From the IMG/VR virus record IMGVR_UViG_3300034524_000084, positions 1-64,000 of that record: a DNA stretch of 64,000 nt. The stretch is one strand, 5' to 3'. Positions 43,787 through 58,816 of this stretch are shown one piece after another (position 1 is the stretch's first letter; every line of letters starts with the position of its first letter). This DNA comes from a virus. Both the position numbers and the translations under genes were made by a program. A model generated the notes under the pieces. The model ran no database searches. It was not told the origin of the DNA and saw only the letters and a program-made list of their open reading frames with translations.

Positions 43787-44878
43787 TTGATGTATAAGTA
43801 TCCGCTTGGATTAACACAACAGTTTAGGTTTTGTGGAAATCCATTTAGAATAGATACATACAAAGGTTGTGATTTTGGATGTTTGTATTGTTATGCAAAT
43901 ACCAGAAAGGGTAATTATAAAAATACATTTGATATAGCGGATTTTAATGTGATAGAAAGTATGTTTAAAAAAGCGTTTGAATCTGATAGAGAATATTCTA
44001 ATATTAATATTGAATTATTGAGGCATAAAGTTCCCCTACATTTAGGGGGAATGTCTGACCCTTTTCAAAGAAGAGAATGGAAATACGGACTTACTTATAA
44101 ATTATTAGAGTTAAGTAATAAATATAAATATCCTATAATTATTTCTACTAAAATTGCTAATTTACCTCAAAAATATTGGGATATATTAAATCCAGAAATT
44201 CATGCTTTTCAAATTAGCTTAATGGGATACAATGAGAATTTTGTTAGAAAATATGAAATAAATACCCCAACACCCCAAGAAAGAATTGAATTCATAAAAT
44301 TGTTAAAATCAAAAGGATTTTGGGTAGGACTAAGAATACAACCTTTAATTGATATTGATGAAGCTATATTATTAATCAAAAATGTTGAGCAATACAATAT
44401 TAACTATATCACTATTGAACATCTGAAAATTCCAGTTGATAATAAATCAACAAGGAAACTATTTGATGATGTTTTTAAAAAATATAATTTTTATAAACCT
44501 AAACAAGGTAGAGCATATGAAATACCAAGAAATATAAAGATAGAAAATATAAATAAAATTAAATCAATTACAAATATACCAATAGGTGTTGGCGATAATG
44601 ATTTACATGAGCTTACTGATACAAGAAACTGTTGTGGAATTGACACAATTAATAAAAACTTTAATAATTGGCTTAAATATAATTATACTTATTTTGCTAC
44701 AGCTAAAGGGACAGAAAATAAAAAAAATATATGGTATCCACAAAACAATTGTAGGTTTGTTTTGAATAGTGCTGACAGAGGAAGTAAAGATTTTAAAACA
44801 GTAAAGGATTATGTAGATTATTATTGTGAAACTTTTCAATATAGTGTTTTTAAAAGCAACCAAAATAATTCTCAATAA
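43787..44878 (+). CDS. Radical SAM protein (spore photoproduct lyase-like)
   Basis: DTYKGCDFGCLYCYA (CxxxCxxC), GGMSDPFQ, ISTK, RIQPLI. Confidence 0.88.
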   Translation: MMYKYPLGLTQQFRFCGNPFRIDTYKGCDFGCLYCYANTRKGNYKNTFDIADFNVIESMFKKAFESDREYSNINIELLRHKVPLHLGGMSDPFQRREWKYGLTYKLLELSNKYKYPIIISTKIANLPQKYWDILNPEIHAFQISLMGYNENFVRKYEINTPTPQERIEFIKLLKSKGFWVGLRIQPLIDIDEAILLIKNVEQYNINYITIEHLKIPVDNKSTRKLFDDVFKKYNFYKPKQGRAYEIPRNIKIENINKIKSITNIPIGVGDNDLHELTDTRNCCGIDTINKNFNNWLKYNYTYFATAKGTENKKNIWYPQNNCRFVLNSADRGSKDFKTVKDYVDYYCETFQYSVFKSNQNNSQ

Positions 44879-45271: not shown

Positions 45272-45299
45272 TTGACAAAGAAAAAATGTGTGGTATAAT
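45272..45299 (+). promoter_or_regulatory. SigmaA promoter of the cas12f locus
   Basis: TTGACA-N16-TATAAT with extended TG. Confidence 0.7.
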
Positions 45300-45389
45300 A
45301 TAAAATGTAAGCGTGAGGTGAATACAATGGATACGAGTTAAAAAATTTATTTTAAACGTACATAATAATAATAATAAGGGGTATGGTAA

Positions 45390-46763
45390 ATGGCAAAAAG
45401 AAAAAAAGAAAAAAGAACTATTATTAAAACACTAAAACTTGAATTGGTAGATGTTCTAAATTATCAACCACCTATTTCAACAGATGAAAAAGAATATACA
45501 AAAAAAGAAAAAGAAAGAATGCTTAAAAAAGAACTTAGAGATTTACAAAAAAGAATAGCGCAAACTAGCAATTATATTATGCGTGAATATTTTTTATGGG
45601 AATTGCGAAAAAATGCAGCTTCTAAAAATGGCATTGTGCTTAATGAAAAAGAAGAATTGGGTACCACACTTCAAAACAAAGGGTATAGAATCGCAGCTGA
45701 AACTTTGAAAGGATTGAATACAAGTAATATATCTGCTTTAACATCGTGGTTATGGGAAAATTGGAAGAAAGCCCGAAAAAGAGTATTGAATGGTAGTATA
45801 AGCTTGCCATCTTATGGTAATAAACAACCAATACATATTAATGGTAAAAATTATAAAATAATAGCATATAAAAATAATAATGAGTATATAATAGAAATAA
45901 CATTTTTAAGTCCTTCTGAAAAAAGAAATCGCACATTAAAATTTGTTACTGCAAAACAAGACAAATATCATCAAGATATTATGAACAAAATATTAAATGG
46001 CGAATACAGACAAGGCTCAGCACAACTTATTTTAGAAGATAATCCTAATAAAAATTTAAGTGCACAAAAAATATTTTTTCATTTTAATTATGAATTTATA
46101 CCAAAACAAAAAGAAGAAATATCTGACAGAATTTTAGGAATTGATTTAGGGCTGAAAAATGTGATAGCGATGCAAGTTTATGATCCACAACATCAACAAT
46201 TTATAAGTCTTGATAATAATGAGTGCGTGATAGATGGTTTAGAACTAGTTATTTACAGAAATAAAATAGAAGCTTTAAGAAATAAGATAAGTAAAGCAAC
46301 AAAATGGAAGGGGAAAGGTAATGTAGGTCATGGTTACAAAAAAAGAAATAAAAATGTATTAAATATACGCAAGAAAATTTCTAACTTTAGAAAAACTTAT
46401 AACTATAAATTAGCTAAATATATAATTGATTTTGCATTAAAGTATCAATGTAAATATATTAAAATGGAAAAATTAACAAGACATGGGTTTAGTGATACAT
46501 TACTTCAAAATTGGACATTTAATGATTTGCAAAACAAGATAAAAAATAAAGCTAAAGAAAATGGAATTGAGGTTTTATTTGTTGAACCGCAGTATACTTC
46601 TCAACAATGCAGCAAATGTGGATATATAGATAAGGAAAACAGGGAAACAAGGGATAATTTTAAATGTAAGAAGTGCGGTTTTGAAATAGATGCTGATATA
46701 AATGCAGCACGAAATATAGCACTTTCGGAAAAAATTATTAAAGAAGATGATGATGATGAATAA
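45390..46763 (+). CDS. cas12f1: Type V-F miniature CRISPR nuclease (Cas12f1/C2c10-like)
   Basis: RuvC-I GIDLG, RuvC-II KMEKL, RuvC-III DADINAARNI, zinc finger CSKC/CKKC. SLPSY, ILNGEY, GHG.KKR and LQNWT..DLQ.KI match AsCas12f1 as recalled; followed by an anti-repeat and an array. Confidence 0.88.
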   Translation: MAKRKKEKRTIIKTLKLELVDVLNYQPPISTDEKEYTKKEKERMLKKELRDLQKRIAQTSNYIMREYFLWELRKNAASKNGIVLNEKEELGTTLQNKGYRIAAETLKGLNTSNISALTSWLWENWKKARKRVLNGSISLPSYGNKQPIHINGKNYKIIAYKNNNEYIIEITFLSPSEKRNRTLKFVTAKQDKYHQDIMNKILNGEYRQGSAQLILEDNPNKNLSAQKIFFHFNYEFIPKQKEEISDRILGIDLGLKNVIAMQVYDPQHQQFISLDNNECVIDGLELVIYRNKIEALRNKISKATKWKGKGNVGHGYKKRNKNVLNIRKKISNFRKTYNYKLAKYIIDFALKYQCKYIKMEKLTRHGFSDTLLQNWTFNDLQNKIKNKAKENGIEVLFVEPQYTSQQCSKCGYIDKENRETRDNFKCKKCGFEIDADINAARNIALSEKIIKEDDDDE

Positions 46764-46764
46764 A

Positions 46765-46850
46765 TAGTACCTTGAAAATAAAATACGAGGTGTTTCCACA
46801 CCTCAAGCCGAGTTCGCCATTCTCGGCAATCCCTCATAGTAATAAAACAA
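46765..46850 (+). ncRNA. Predicted tracrRNA
   Basis: Hairpin GAGGTG-TTTCCA-CACCTC (loop pairs with repeat TGGAA), hairpin GCCGAG/CTCGGC, anti-repeat CAATCCCTCATAGTAATAAAAC at 46827-46848. Boundaries approximate. Confidence 0.75.
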
Positions 46851-46956
46851 AATGGCTGTCGTCGATCCCTAAAGGGTTTTGCATTATTGTACATCGACGA
46901 CAAAAAAGAGGATACATAACCTCGGAAATACAAGAAATATCGGTGTTTCAAAACGG

Positions 46957-47187
46957 GTTTTAATATAACATATGAGGGAATGGAATATAAAGGATATACT
47001 AATATATCTAATTCATTTATTTGTTTTAATATAACATATGAGGGAATGGAATCTGCTTTTCTGACTCTACCTATCATGTTTTCAATCCCTCGTTTTAATA
47101 TAACATATGAGGGAATGGAATGATGGTAGCAGGGTAAAATATAGAAACCTTGAAAGAGTTTTAATATAACATATGAGGGAATGGAAT
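46957..47187 (+). CRISPR. CRISPR array, 4 identical 30-bp repeats and 3 spacers
   Basis: GTTTTAATATAACATATGAGGGAATGGAAT at 46957, 47023, 47092 and 47158; spacers of 36, 39 and 36 bp. Confidence 0.96.
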
Positions 47188-48510: not shown

Positions 48511-51500
48511 GTGCAAATCAAAAAAAGAAATGGTAAATTAGTAGAATTTGATGAGTTAAAAATAATTAGGGCAATTGAAAAAGCAATGGCAGAAACAAAA
48601 GATGGAGTGGATAGATACGTGAGTATGTCTATCGCTAAAAAAATTAAAGAAGAATTAGAAAAACAAGATGAAATTAAAAGCGTAGAAGATATACAAGATA
48701 TGGTAGAAGTAGAATTAATGAAAGTAAGACCAGATGTGGCTAAGAAATACATACTCTACAGAGAAAAAAGAGCACAAATTAGGCAAAATGGTTGGGAGAT
48801 GACTGATTTACAAAGGGATATATTCAAAAATAAATACGAATACAACAATGAAGGGTTTTTCAATTTTGCAAATAGGGTAGCAGGTGGCAACGATTATATA
48901 GCAAAGTTAATTGTAAACAAAAAATTCTTACCTGCTGGTAGAGTTTTAGCAGGTAGAGGATTGCAAAATAAAGGAATAAAGGTAACTTATAGTAATTGCT
49001 TTATCGCAGGAACAAAGATTATTACTAAACGTGGTTTAATTAATATTGAAGACGTAAAAGTAGGAGATTATGTTTTAACTTCTGACAATACATGGCAACC
49101 AGTTAATTATGTGATGAATAGAGAATATAATGAAGATTTATACAAGATAGAATTTGAGTATGGATTAGAACCCGTTATTTGTACTGCTAACCATGAATTC
49201 TTAGCTACAGATGGATGGGTAAGGGCTGATAGATTAGTAGGTTATCAAATGGATAGAAAATATTATTCTAATGCACACTTTGTTAAATTGCCCAAACCAT
49301 CTTTTAAAATACCAGAATTTAAAATAAAATTATCTAATTATATTACCTTAAAAGAAAATCAAAAGATTGAAAAAATGGATGATGGTTATATAAGACTAGT
49401 CACCGTTAGTAATGGTGGTAATGGTGCAAAAAATGTACCACATTATAGTAACAAAATTAAAGACGAAATAGTTATCAATAGAGATGTTAGATATTTGTTA
49501 GGAAGATGGATAGGAGATGGAAGTACCACAAGGCGAAAAGGGCAAAAAAATCATAGTATTTTTCAAATTGTATTTAATTCGCAAAAAGAACAAGAGGCTT
49601 TGTTAAAGTGCGCTAAAATTATAGAAGATAATTTTGGGATCAAACCATCAATACGAATTAATGAAAAACAGCATACCGCAATACTAAGAGTTGAAAATCC
49701 ATTATTAGCTGAATTCGTGGCAAAGTATATCGGTTTTAATGCCCAAACAAAACGTATTCCTAAAGATTTAATAGGGGATATGGATGTAATTATAGGAATT
49801 ATTGATTCAGATGGCACTCTGACAAAAATGGGGAATATTTCTTTAGTATTCAATAATAAAGAATTATTAGAAGATATTAGATTATCTTTGGCTTTAAATG
49901 GTATATATACAAAAGAACCCCAAAAAATTAAACAATCCATGTCTAACACTTATAGAACTTACTCGGCTTACAAGATACTAATCCCGACACCTTTTGTGAA
50001 ACACTATCTTATAGATAAAATTAATAAAAAATACGAAGATGACAGAGTGGAACATATAAAAAATGAGACACTAAAAAGAGGTACGTTTTATAAAATTGTT
50101 GATGGTAATATCTATACTATTGTAAAAAATATCACAATATTAAAAAATAATAAAATCACTGTGTATAATCTCTCAGTGGAAAATAATCATACGTATACAG
50201 CGAATGGGGTGGTAGTCCATAATTGTTATGTCATTCCCGCTCCTGAGGATAACCTTGAATCAATATTTGATACTGCAAAATATTTAGCGAGAACATATAG
50301 CTATGGTGGTGGCTGTGGAATTGATATATCAAAGTTAAGACCTAAAGGTGCAAAAGTAAATAATGCAGCTAAAGAAAGCACTGGAGCAGTTTCATTTATG
50401 GAGTTATTTTCTACTACAACTGGATTGATAAGTCAAAAAGGCAGACGTAGGCAATAAATATTGCCTCCGAAAATGCATTGCATAGAGTAGGAGGATGTTA
50501 ATGATACAAAAAGAGATTTTAGAGGAATATCTCAAACAAGGAATAAGTTTAAGAGGAATTGGGCGAATTACAGGGTATAATCATAGGACTTTAGGATATT
50601 GGGCAAAAAAATACCAACTTACTCATCTAATAAAGCCTAACCATATAAAATATAAGGATGAGCATTATTTCCAAAAAATAAACACTAAAGAAAAGGCATA
50701 TATTTTAGGTTTTATATTGGGCGATGGATATATAAGCGATGAAGCCATACAAATAAGTATAAAACTAAGTGACAGAGAAATACTTGACCTTATAGCCGAT
50801 GAACTTGGCGCAAGGCTAATAATTGACGAGCGAACCAATAAAAAACAAAAAAAATACCCTTCAGCGGAAATTAATATAGGAAACAAATATATAGTGAAAG
50901 ATATACTTAGATTAAGTGGAGGCAAACTCAAACAAGATAGGCATATACCAATTATTTCACCAAAATTGGAAAATTATTTGGTACAAGGATTTTTTGATGC
51001 TGAAGGAACTATAACTTGGGGACACCGAAAAGATAGGGATAGAATTTGGCACAAAGTAGCATTTATTTCACAACTCAAAATGTTGGAAGGTATCCAAAAT
51101 ATACTTATTAAAAATGGTATTCCTACTAAAATTAGACCAAAATCAGACGGTAATTGTTATGTGATGGAAATTGCTAATAAAGAGATGGTTTTAAAACTGA
51201 TGGAGTATATTTACCAAGACAAAGAATTTATTATCTTAAAACGAAAATACCAAAATTATCAAGCCCTGCGTCTTGAATTGGGTGAAGTCGGTGGAGCCTA
51301 AACATACCTTATGGTATGCATGGTAACACCGAGCCAAGCCTACCGAATGGCTCTTAGGGTAGGTAGGAAGGTGTAGAGACTATGGGGTGAGGAAGCCTAC
51401 CAATAATCCTCAATAAGCGCCCAAGCCCTTATACATTTTGTATAGGGGTAAGATATAGTCCAACCCACGTGGAAACACGTGGATTATTGGGGGCATTAAT

Positions 51501-52881
51501 GATAAGTATAGATTGCCACCACCCAGACATTATAGATTTTATTAACATAAAAAATGATTTGACTAAAGTTACTAAAGCAAACATCTCAATAAGAGCAACA
51601 GATGATTTTATGCAAGCAATAAAAAATAATGAAGATTTTGAGTTATTTTTTGAAATTCCTGAAACTGGCGAAAAAATATCTAAAAAGGTCAGAGCAAGAG
51701 ATTTATTATATGAAATAGCTAAATCAAACTGGAATATGGGAGAGCCAGGATTTTTGTACTGGGATAGAATTGAGAAATGGAATTTATTATATGGCAATAA
51801 AGAATTTAAATTTGGGGGAGTAAATCCGTGTGGTGAAGAGCCTCTCCCAGACTTCGGCTCATGTAATCTTGGTAGTATGAATTTATCTGAATATGTAGTT
51901 AAACCATTCACAAAAGAAGCTTATTTCGATTTTGATAGCTTTGCAAGAGATGTAAAAGAAGCAGTTGTCTATCTCAATGAAATACTTGATGAGGGAATGT
52001 ATTTACACCCACTGAAAGAACAACAAGAAGTAGTAAGAGATTGGAGACAAATTGGGTTGGGCATCATGGGGCTCGCAGATATGTTTATAAAATTAGGTAT
52101 ACGCTATGGTTCACCAGAATCATTAGAATTGGCAGATAAAATAGGTTATGTAATGATTAATGCAGCTATGCAACAATCGGCACTACTTGCAAAGGAATAT
52201 GGCACATATCCTAAATATGACAAAGAAGCAACTTTATCATCACCTTTTTTCCAATACAATGCTGATGAAGTCACAAAAACATTGGTTGAGAAATATGGAT
52301 TAAGAAACAGCCAGCTCCTTACAATTGCTCCTACAGGCAGTATTTCCACTATGCTTGGTGTATCAGGAGGTATTGAACCCATTTTTGAGATATCTTATAC
52401 GAGAAAAACTGAAACACTGAATGGTACTGAAAGCTATTATAAAGTATATACACCAATTGTTGCAGAATATATGAAATTGTACAATTTAAAATCAGGAGAA
52501 GAATTACCTGACTATTTTGTTACAGCAATGACAATTCCATATCAAGAAAGAATAAAAATGCAGGCAGTATGGCAGAAACATATTGATGCAAGTATATCAT
52601 CAACTGTAAATCTTCCCGAAGAAACTGCAATAGAAGACATCATGAATATTTACATGATGGCTTGGGAAGAAGGATTAAAAGGAATTACAGTATTTAGAAA
52701 TAATTGTTTTAGAACAGGAATATTACTTACAGAACCACCTAAAACACAACAAACACAACAAGAAACAAAAAATACAAATTTAGAAGAAGAAGATAAATGT
52801 CCAATCTGTGGTGGCAAATTAAAACATATAGGTGGATGTACTGAATGTGAAGATTGTGGTTGGAGTGCTTGCTCAGTTTGA
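48511..52881 (+). CDS. nrdJ: Class II ribonucleotide reductase split by an intein and a group I intron (exons 48511-50448 and 51490-52881)
   Basis: ATP cone, PAGRVL, SNC, GGGCG, spliced GRR|GALM, NPCGE, CNLGS, TIAPTGS, C-terminal cysteines; no small-subunit gene nearby. Confidence 0.92.
48997..50223 (+). mobile_element. Intein with LAGLIDADG endonuclease (409 aa)
   Basis: YSN|CFIAGT...CTANHEF...LGRWIGDGS...IGIIDSDG...VYNLSV...VVHN|CYV. Confidence 0.93.
50449..51489 (+). mobile_element. Group I intron
   Basis: Follows an exon U and ends in G. IGS GCGTCT (51268-51273) pairs with exon AGACGT; R element GTAGAGACTA, S element AAGATATAGTCC, P9 CCACGTG-GAAA-CACGTGG. Confidence 0.9.
50495..51301 (+). 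CDS. Intron-encoded LAGLIDADG homing endonuclease
   Basis: AYILGFILGDG and VQGFFDAEG motifs; N-terminal HTH. Confidence 0.9.
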   Translation: MLMIQKEILEEYLKQGISLRGIGRITGYNHRTLGYWAKKYQLTHLIKPNHIKYKDEHYFQKINTKEKAYILGFILGDGYISDEAIQISIKLSDREILDLIADELGARLIIDERTNKKQKKYPSAEINIGNKYIVKDILRLSGGKLKQDRHIPIISPKLENYLVQGFFDAEGTITWGHRKDRDRIWHKVAFISQLKMLEGIQNILIKNGIPTKIRPKSDGNCYVMEIANKEMVLKLMEYIYQDKEFIILKRKYQNYQALRLELGEVGGA

Positions 52882-57307: not shown

Positions 57308-57468
57308 GTATGTTTTTTAGAGAAATATGGTTAGATAAGGGAAATCCAGCTTATATTTTTGCAAAAGGTAATAATGTGTGGATAATGTCAATTGAAGATA
57401 ATATTAACAACAATAAAGAAATATTAGATGTAATTGATGAATACGGTAAAGATAGGGATTTTTCGTTT

Positions 57469-58816
57469 CTGACATACTCTCTCCACTGAAGTGGAGAGGT
57501 TCTTTAAGCGAAGTTTGGTAGTCTATGCTACCCTTATTCGCTTGGGGCTGCCAAACCCTCTACTCCTATCCAGTACTGGATTTGGAGCTACTCTCTTTAA
57601 TATATTTATTGCACCATTTATATCTGCATTCATTACTGCACCGCATTTGCTACAGACGTATAATCCTCTGTATATGCGATTATTTTTCTTCACTACACCG
57701 CATACACTGCAAGTCTGTGATGTGTACGCTTCATCTACCTTTTCTACTTCTATTCCATATTCTTTAGCTTTGTATTTTATCATATCAAATAATCTACCAA
57801 ACGGTATTTTGTGTAGTTTCTCGTTATTTTTATGTCCTATATCCATATTTGTTATTCCATCGCTCATTCCACCTATCACTATCTTGCTTACTCCTTTTTC
57901 TTTCGCTAATTCTACTATATGTCTTGAAACTTTATGTATATAGTCTTTTACAAAATTATTCTCTTTGATTATTAAATTGTGAAACTTTTGCGATGTTTTG
58001 TATCCTTGTTTTGAAATTACAGATTGAATCTTCGCTTTTTCTTTGGCTAATAATCTTAATCTTGAGATAAGGTGACTGCCATCGATGATAAATGTTTCTG
58101 GATTTTCTTCTATAACAATTGAAGCGAGATTCTTTACTCCAAAATCTATTCCCATTAATTTATCTCTTTTAGGCTTGATTTCTGGTATTTCTTTTTTGTA
58201 GATGATATGGACAAAGTAGGTGGTATATCCATAAGAAGTTTTTGGAACAATTTCAATTTCCTGTACAGTATTGAGCGATAGATTTTTCGGTAAATCTATC
58301 CATAGATATTTGGACTCAATACCGTACTTTTCTTTTAAATATTGCTTTGTTTGTGTGGACAATGATAGTCTGATTTTGCTATTAATTATTTTTATGCCAT
58401 TTTTCTTCCATCTTACAGGGATATGCCCGTTTTTGGGTTGATACTTCGGCTTTTTAGTATATCCATCAAAAAAATTCTTCCAAGCTATCTGTAGTTTTTG
58501 CAGTATTGCTTGTGCAGATTGTGAATGCAAGTTTTTATACCAGAAATTATCCTTTAAGCACTTTTCTAACTGATTTACTAATACTTCTCTGTTTTGAACA
58601 GCATAGTTTGCAACGTTCCACAATTTTGATGCTGAGTATGTTAAATGTCCCAATATTATTCTGTGTTCGCTGTTGCAGTTAGAGAGTTGAAATACTATAA
58701 CTCTTGTTACTATCACTTTTCTCACCTTCTTTCTGTTTTAGATCTGCTTTATTTTATCACATTTTTACCGCCTTTCATCTCTCCAATAAATTGGAGAGCG
58801 TTCTCGGCGGATGATC
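57469..58816 (-). mobile_element. IS200/IS605-family IS1341-type element (tnpB only)
   Basis: Subterminal hairpins CTCTCCA-N-TGGAGAG at both ends; inserted 3' of TTAC on the minus strand; right end TCAG; no target duplication and no tnpA. Confidence 0.85.
57523..58725 (-). CDS. tnpB: TnpB RNA-guided endonuclease
   Basis: LWNVANY, HSQSAQ, GIDFGV, DYIHKVSR, EAYTSQTCSVC, CSKCG, NADINGAINI. Confidence 0.93.
   Translation of the reverse strand: MRKVIVTRVIVFQLSNCNSEHRIILGHLTYSASKLWNVANYAVQNREVLVNQLEKCLKDNFWYKNLHSQSAQAILQKLQIAWKNFFDGYTKKPKYQPKNGHIPVRWKKNGIKIINSKIRLSLSTQTKQYLKEKYGIESKYLWIDLPKNLSLNTVQEIEIVPKTSYGYTTYFVHIIYKKEIPEIKPKRDKLMGIDFGVKNLASIVIEENPETFIIDGSHLISRLRLLAKEKAKIQSVISKQGYKTSQKFHNLIIKENNFVKDYIHKVSRHIVELAKEKGVSKIVIGGMSDGITNMDIGHKNNEKLHKIPFGRLFDMIKYKAKEYGIEVEKVDEAYTSQTCSVCGVVKKNNRIYRGLYVCSKCGAVMNADINGAINILKRVAPNPVLDRSRGFGSPKRIRVA

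Follow-up and report, generated by a model that had tools for sequence, protein, structure and literature searches.

A type V-F1 Cas12f locus of a tailed phage, probably directed against rival phages

The Cas12f locus and its carrier phage

The DNA analysed here (64,000 nucleotides, referred to below as the window) makes up the opening 64 kb of IMGVR_UViG_3300034524_000084, an IMG/VR virus record of 97,780 bp, and it carries between positions 45,272 and 47,187 a compact CRISPR locus built around a Cas12f nuclease. A promoter, a 457-aa nuclease, a structured 193-bp intergenic region and four perfect 30-bp repeats with three spacers had been proposed from the sequence, and each of these elements lies where that original prediction placed it. 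The features of the locus are given below, together with those of the predicted trans-activating CRISPR RNA (tracrRNA); L005 denotes a contig of a sister phage.

45272–45299, + strand: sigma-70 promoter, TTGACA, 16 nt, TGnTATAAT; consensus match 12/12, with TG extension
45390–46763, + strand: cas12f, 457 aa, type V-F1 (AsCas12f1-like), assigned from the open reading frame (ORF), the Pfam TNB domain and AsCas12f1 structures
46787–46804, + strand: predicted tracrRNA hairpin 1, 7 bp, one compensatory stem pair
46807–46827, + strand: predicted tracrRNA hairpin 2, GCCGAG/CTCGGC, stem invariant
46830–46848, + strand: predicted split anti-repeat, UCCCUCAUA with repeat nt 15–23 and UAAAAC with repeat nt 1–6
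46857–46902, + strand: predicted hairpin 3, 10-bp stem GUCGUCGAUC.../...AUCGACGAC; stem kept in L005, loop diverged
46903–46956, + strand: array leader, differing between sister phages save for ACGG at the junction with the first repeat
46957–47187, + strand: CRISPR array, four repeats and three spacers, in the order repeat then spacer

The carrier genome has a 126-bp direct terminal repeat and encodes a portal, tail proteins, a DNA polymerase, a DnaB helicase, a split ribonucleotide reductase and an integrase-like recombinase, a gene content which identifies it as a tailed phage and bears out the proposal that the system is phage-encoded. Its host is probably Clostridium-like. The tyrosine integrase-like gene (phrog_1, E 1.7e-49) lies on the minus strand at genome positions 76735–77688 (L236:12735–13688), and the phage may be temperate. 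We saw the locus in sequencing runs from subsurface, soil, landfill and wastewater samples, which are non-thermal habitats; no RNA run was among them. Among INPHARED phages there was no nucleotide match to the locus, the array region giving only short matches at chance level.

The promoter has the same sequence in L005. Because we found neither a further + strand promoter nor a terminator between it and the array, it probably drives the tracrRNA and the array in addition to cas12f. Within the 90-nt cas12f leader, a Shine-Dalgarno-like GAGGTG is followed by a four-codon mini-ORF, ATG GAT ACG AGT TAA (45323–45337, + strand), identical in L005, which may be a translational leader.

Searches of the whole 97.8-kb genome gave zero matches to Cas1, Cas2 or Cas4 at E ≤ 1 and no match to the Y1 transposase (PF01797, TnpA), in line with the earlier statement that no cas1/cas2 genes or insertion sequence ends adjoin the locus. 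As a complete adaptive CRISPR-Cas locus is defined by an adaptation module of its own (Cas1 and Cas2, with or without Cas4), the locus described here falls outside that class.

The effector is of the AsCas12f1 type

Judged by its sequence, the 457-aa protein is an AsCas12f1-type (type V-F1) effector and not a TnpB. The best relatives of solved structure are AsCas12f1 entries (8J12, 7WJU and 8DZJ; E 3.5e-60, residues 78–451), followed by a 433-aa Cas12f (9nzq, E 9.7e-60), while ISDra2 TnpB matches at E 1.7e-5. The Cas12f1-like TNB domain of Pfam (PF07282) scores 84.4 bits against a cut-off of 26.3, and the NCBIfam model of CRISPR_Cas12f2 (NF049972) scores 101.3 bits against a cut-off of 450, which excludes type V-F2; the equivalog models IS200_TnpB (54.8 bits, cut-off 425) and IS607_TnpB (34.8 bits, cut-off 350) stay far under their cut-offs. 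With 457 aa, a split RuvC domain and a D/E/D triad, the protein lies within the 400–700 aa range and has the architecture that characterise type V-F1 effectors.

In an alignment of eleven sequences (the query and ten homologs) the RuvC triad D252, E360 and D436 and the zinc finger C407/C410/C426/C429 are invariant, so that the catalytic centre is intact, as had been proposed. The triad aligns with the GIDLG, ME and ADxNAA motifs and with D225, E324 and D401 of AsCas12f1, residues needed for cleavage in that enzyme (bioRxiv 10.1101/2023.07.03.547593). The two proteins, the reference being that of Acidibacillus sulfuroxidans (V-F1), are thus alike as miniature effectors with RuvC and zinc finger and a shared triad. 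They differ in length, the phage protein having a longer Lys/Glu-rich N-terminus (457 aa, against 422 aa in AsCas12f1). By analogy with AsCas12f1, the phage protein would act as a homodimer on one guide RNA and perform RNA-guided cleavage of double-stranded DNA.

The identification as Cas12f also withstood phylogenetic comparison with TnpB. In a tree of 136 rows, the 12 TnpB sequences form a single clade (support 100) outside all 124 Cas12f-like rows, and the query falls in a clade of 25 members (support 99) with Clostridium brassicae, C. tagluense, C. ihumii and five IMG/VR viral contigs. Rows from viruses, genomes and metagenomes are well intermixed, a topology which points to frequent exchange. 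The homologs P0003–P0007 are 46–83% identical to the phage protein. Arrays with at least three repeats stand next to 41 of 80 relatives from metagenomes, 39 of 67 from genomes and 19 of 44 from IMG/VR, and after dereplication an array adjoins 77 of 119 relatives, counts in which arrays may be missed, many array-less relatives being on short contigs.

A predicted tracrRNA lies between gene and array

The 193-nt intergenic region (46764–46956) has a minimum free energy of -50.9 kcal/mol (z = -4.34; none of 200 shuffled sequences was as stable), and computational analysis of its structure indicates that it encodes a tracrRNA with an anti-repeat, placed between gene and array. The original prediction had drawn this layout by analogy with AsCas12f1, and both the anti-repeat and compensatory covariation argue for it. 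In AsCas12f1 a 169-nt tracrRNA lies between gene and array and forms two repeat:anti-repeat segments, the crRNA (CRISPR RNA) consisting of repeat then spacer (PMC8548392). The repeat and tracrRNA sequences of AsCas12f1 are unrelated to those of the phage, whose conserved tracr core is shorter, about 70 nt plus one hairpin. No Rfam family matched the tracr region at E ≤ 0.1.

In the predicted fold, two pseudoknots accompany the split anti-repeat: UUCCA in the hairpin 1 loop is paired to UGGAA at the repeat's 3' end, and the loop of hairpin 2 pairs with 46851–46856. Hairpin 3 would belong to the tracrRNA as its 3' domain or serve as a boundary element. In L005, double compensation relative to the window affects two pairs of the anti-repeat and one of hairpin 1. 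Comparison of the main locus with a second, tracr-like copy elsewhere in the carrier genome (described below) adds three of the five pairs of pseudoknot 1 and two pairs of pseudoknot 2, giving a total of eight doubly compensated pairs in hairpin 1, the first anti-repeat segment and the two pseudoknots. Co-folding separates cognate from non-cognate partners: the tracr and repeat of the window yield -18.3 kcal/mol and those of L005 -11.8 kcal/mol, against about -7 kcal/mol for the non-cognate combinations and -6.5 ± 2.3 kcal/mol for the window tracr with a shuffled repeat.

A terminator-like match on the minus strand of hairpin 1 was rejected as a functional element, as the side of the protospacer-adjacent motif (PAM), the strand of the anti-repeat and the direction of all neighbouring genes indicate + strand transcription. 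The final 9 nt of spacer 2 (CAATCCCTC, 47083–47091) are the same as the start of the anti-repeat region (46827–46835). This identity is probably a coincidence, since the same 9 nt occur in the tape-measure gene of the target phage.

The spacers match other phages

The array begins 193 nt past the cas12f stop codon and has four identical 30-nt repeats, GTTTTAATATAACATATGAGGGAATGGAAT, starting at 46957, 47023, 47092 and 47158, separated by spacers of 36, 39 and 36 nt. Its orientation on the + strand follows from the T-rich flank, which is 5' of the protospacers, and from the degenerate terminal repeats, which are at the distal end in L005 and in a second sister contig, L015. Targets were sought by exact-prefix scans of IMG/VR followed by mismatch-tolerant matching, and phage contigs with protospacers were found for all five distinct spacers of the window and L005:

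46987–47022, + strand: spacer 1, 36/36 in L010 (same contig as L011), DnaD-like replication initiator of target family A; flank ATTA
47053–47091, + strand: spacer 2, 37/39 in L007 and 36/39 in L013, tape-measure gene of family A; flank TTTA
47122–47157, + strand: spacer 3, 36/36 in L008 and L009, family B gene just upstream of the large terminase; flank TTTA
L005 spacer 1: 36/36 in four contigs, 3' end of the major tail gene; flank CTCA
L005 spacer 2: 35/37 in L007, tape measure; flank TTTA

Family A comprises L007, L011, L013 and L014, which are 89–93% identical in nucleotide sequence, and family B comprises L008 and L009. Both are unrelated to the carrier, with no nucleotide similarity beyond short patches, and the carrier genome itself has no match to any spacer. 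The expectation that the system is aimed at competing mobile elements is supported by these five spacers, all of which match other phages. Spacers of the window and of L005 match the same contig, L007, so that two sister phages aim different spacers at the same rival. Furthermore, in two public subsurface metagenome runs (X2 and X7) the exact target of spacer 3, in a non-array context, occurs together with a contig on which a related cas12f locus lies. A variant of this target, with two synonymous changes within the six PAM-proximal bases, is present in X2 as well.

A T-rich 5' flank had been anticipated, and TTA lies directly 5' of four of the five protospacers, compared with a background of 3.3% (P about 6e-6). 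The five flanks are TTTA in three cases, ATTA in one and CTCA in one, which indicates, from these natural targets, a PAM of the type 5'-NTTA. The NTTR PAM of AsCas12f1 agrees with the TTTA and ATTA flanks (bioRxiv 10.1101/2023.07.03.547593). In that enzyme Y76 and S92 read the Ts and H72 and K96 read the -1 base (bioRxiv 10.1101/2023.07.03.547593); the former correspond to Y99 and S115 in the phage protein, whereas the latter are replaced by Q95 and S119.

Cassette exchange and the source of new spacers

The Cas12f of L005 is 96% identical to that of the window and is associated with a different repeat, GTTTCAAGGTAATATATAGGGGAGTGGAAC, while L015 (95% protein identity) has the same repeat as the window. 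The three phages hold seven spacers in total, with none in common. In both L005 and L015 degenerate repeats stand at the array end far from the tracrRNA, which is the polarity expected if new spacers enter at the leader side.

When the window was compared with L005 (46400–47300 against L005:5110–6000), nucleotide identity was 99–100% across the upstream 1.2 kb, to about 46400, and fell beyond that point to 80–88%, with a low of 55%. The less similar part takes in the last third of cas12f at its 3' side, the tracrRNA, the array with its repeat and the start of the next gene, with the exception of a 100-nt stretch (46701–46800) that is 97% identical. Fifteen of the 17 amino-acid differences between the two Cas12f proteins fall in residues 352–432. 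This pattern places a recombination breakpoint inside cas12f, and the drop in identity together with the clustering of the changes suggests that the C-terminal RuvC and zinc finger, the tracrRNA and the repeat travel as one co-adapted cassette.

As the phage has no adaptation genes, yet near-identical phages carry wholly different spacers, new spacers must originate elsewhere. The use of host adaptation machinery in trans by CRISPR systems of mobile elements is an established idea (PMC9071438; PMC12814883), and host Cas1-Cas2 acting in trans would be the most plausible source, cassette recombination between phages also contributing to spacer change. The original prediction had inferred such borrowing from a likeness of the repeat and the spacer lengths to those of clostridial type I-B arrays. 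Indirect support comes from clostridial relatives, whose Cas12f-array repeats are identical to cas1-adjacent repeats at 22–26 of 30 positions; searches turned up no host array with a repeat like that of the phage. For Sarcina ventriculi, 26 of 30 positions of the Cas12f-array repeat agree with the I-B-like repeat next to cas1 in that genome; for Clostridium brassicae the number is 22 of 30, the last 13 nt being identical (loci L162, L212, L168, L227 and L228). These similarities were seen by direct comparison; at ≤3 mismatches no repeat was shared between the Cas12f arrays and the cas1-adjacent arrays of these two species. One S. ventriculi contig of 62.7 kb has the Cas12f locus at either end, a sign that it may be a circular episome.

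A second tracr-like copy, a TnpB-family gene and other neighbours

Outside the window, on the minus strand at genome positions 92684–92591, lies a tracr-like copy 76% identical to 46781–46874 (E 3e-13), with a degenerate repeat directly after it (92590–92566; the whole insert is 92566–92684, or L139:2567–2685). The insert sits between an SbcD-like exonuclease gene and a gene of phrog_3314, and the degenerate repeat is followed at once by the latter's ribosome-binding site and ATG. Both pseudoknots covary with those of the main locus. In two related phages (L140 and L141) the downstream protein is 98% and 95% identical and the insert is absent, homology to the carrier starting exactly at the first base past the degenerate repeat. 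Both contain the guide sequence, with the flanks TCTG and TTGA and not TTA. Since L140 and L141 are also unlike one another upstream, the abrupt stop in homology may simply mark where a module ends. The guide had no other match at ≤4 mismatches in the genome or the compared loci, and no PAM-adjacent seed or partial match in the carrier genome.

This fused tracr-repeat copy resembles the unsplit omega-RNA stage proposed for the change of TnpB into Cas12 by Jin et al. (2025), according to the citation of that work in PMC13565253. A speculative and rather unlikely proposal is that Cas12f has two guide modes, one with the tracrRNA and crRNA of the array and one with an unsplit single guide 45 kb away, and that, separately, the clade copies host I-B repeats so that host Cas1-Cas2 fills the phage arrays. 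In one version the unsplit, omega-RNA-like guide could aim Cas12f at insert-free alleles and so work in homing or exclusion; in another, Cas12f could use it to regulate how the downstream gene is translated.

The original prediction had missed a separate TnpB-family gene (400 aa, 57523–58725, minus strand), which lies 11 kb downstream of the Cas12f locus and is neither adjacent to it nor part of it. Its product scores 215 bits with the guided_TnpB model and is 33% identical to the C-terminal half of Cas12f, and the same gene is present in a sister phage contig. At the canonical position of the RuvC glutamate it has no Glu (KIVIGGMSDG, against YIKMEKL in Cas12f), so it may be a nuclease-dead TnpB. 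A sub-threshold Rfam match to HgcC (28.4 bits, E 0.0034) at 57456–57558, minus strand, overlaps the 3' end of this gene, and the segment may be an omega RNA.

A radical-SAM-domain gene (43787–44878, + strand, 363 aa), situated two genes upstream of cas12f, is missing in L005, where its flanks are joined directly. Downstream, the large subunit of ribonucleotide reductase (48511–52881, + strand) is encoded in two ORFs split by an HNH-type endonuclease gene (50495–51301), and the first of these ORFs also shows partial intein- or terminase-like matches. The split suggests an intron or intein insertion.

Discussion

We consider it likely, from the sequence evidence above, that the locus is a functional type V-F1 Cas12f module by which a tailed phage of about 98 kb interferes with other phages. 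A strong constitutive promoter would place cas12f, tracrRNA and mini-array in a single transcription unit. The tracrRNA would bind each repeat through the split anti-repeat and a pseudoknot, pairings that are predicted from covariation, and the repeat-spacer crRNAs would be loaded into Cas12f, with processing and a dimeric complex as in AsCas12f1. This complex would recognise the 5'-NTTA-type PAM suggested by the protospacer flanks and cut with its single RuvC site. The targets would be genes essential to siphovirus-like phages of the same communities, which belong to at least two unrelated families. Competitors would thereby be eliminated in co-infection or, an option that rests on the integrase-like gene, a lysogen would be shielded from superinfection.

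Several observations weigh against this interpretation. One of the five protospacers, that of L005 spacer 1, is flanked by CTCA and not by TTA, spacer 2 of the window is mismatched with its best target at two of its positions, 27 and 31, and the spacers of L015 matched no target among the loci compared. Regarding the supply of spacers, the pattern of the repeat family, GTTTNAANNTAANATATNNGGGANTGGAA (22-base degenerate), had no match in 185,579 species-representative genomes, and a looser I-B-like pattern gave only single matches in 401 Clostridiaceae genomes, none of them within an array and about as frequent as those of the reversed control. Host loci may also be further targets.

Three other explanations were weighed. 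The locus could be a frozen or decaying remnant of a cellular type V-F system that is no longer used, its spacer matches being historical. The very small array of three spacers, the absence of adaptation genes and the degenerate terminal repeats of L005 and L015 are all compatible with decay. We nevertheless regard this as improbable, given that the four repeats of the window are identical, the promoter matches the consensus perfectly and the catalytic residues are intact. Where the cassette differs, compensatory changes keep the pairing of tracr and repeat; moreover, three near-identical phages have seven different spacers and exact-match targets are found in the same samples.

Slightly less probable again is that the main role of the locus is regulation or counter-defence against the host, with Cas12f binding or cutting host or phage loci and not rival phages. 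Al-Shayeb et al. reported phage spacers against host genes (PMC7162821), and the second tracr-like copy with its degenerate repeat, directly upstream of the ribosome-binding site of a phage gene, could be a regulatory guide. However, all five testable spacers match structural or replication genes of phages and none a cellular gene, the nuclease triad is intact, and the guide of the second copy has no PAM-adjacent partial match in the phage genome.

To read the gene as a TnpB of the IS200/IS605 type, accompanied by an omega RNA and by coincidental repeats, is almost certainly wrong: the generic guided_TnpB model of NCBIfam does score 146.6 bits on the protein, JGI labels one homolog IS605 OrfB transposase and a true TnpB-family gene exists elsewhere in the phage, but this reading is contradicted by the array with its PAM-flanked protospacers, the separate tracrRNA, the tree in which the TnpB outgroups keep to a clade of their own, the lack of Y1 TnpA in the genome and a similarity to AsCas12f1 some 55 orders of magnitude stronger than that to ISDra2 TnpB.

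Interference between phages, the reading we favour, has precedents. Phage type V-F systems without adaptation genes have been known since 2020, when Al-Shayeb et al. described new type V-F (Cas14) subtypes in huge phages, without Cas1, Cas2 or Cas4 (PMC7162821). The locus resembles these in its class 2 V-F effector, the lack of Cas1/Cas2/Cas4, the small array and the spacers against other phages. It differs in that its carrier has 98 kb, where those phages have 200 kb or more, in that its protein belongs to a Clostridium-associated AsCas12f1-like clade, and in that tracrRNA, PAM and specific targets can all be resolved from the sequence. Virus-borne mini-arrays (PMC11656645) are similarly tiny, with one to three spacers against other viruses and no adaptation module. 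However, they have host-identical repeats, depend on a host effector and target related viruses, whereas the phage described here has its own effector and tracrRNA and unrelated targets. In a Sulfoacidibacillus relative (L179), at a large distance in the tree, the array has 19 repeats, in contrast to the three-spacer array borne by the phage.

The value of the locus lies in its completeness, as the sequence itself reveals the effector, the tracrRNA pairing scheme, the repeat, a likely PAM and actual targets, so that it can be put to the test directly as a 457-aa editor of non-thermal origin. The co-variation of the cassette, the I-B-like repeats in the clade and the fused second copy are side results of value in themselves. 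That clostridial Cas12f repeats come so close to the cas1-adjacent repeat in their own genome is relevant to the supply of spacers in systems lacking adaptation genes. If the phage is temperate, the Cas12f system could amount to prophage-encoded protection against superinfection. With one rival matched by different spacers of sister phages, and carrier and target found in the same samples, the locus offers a clear field example of CRISPR warfare of phage against phage.

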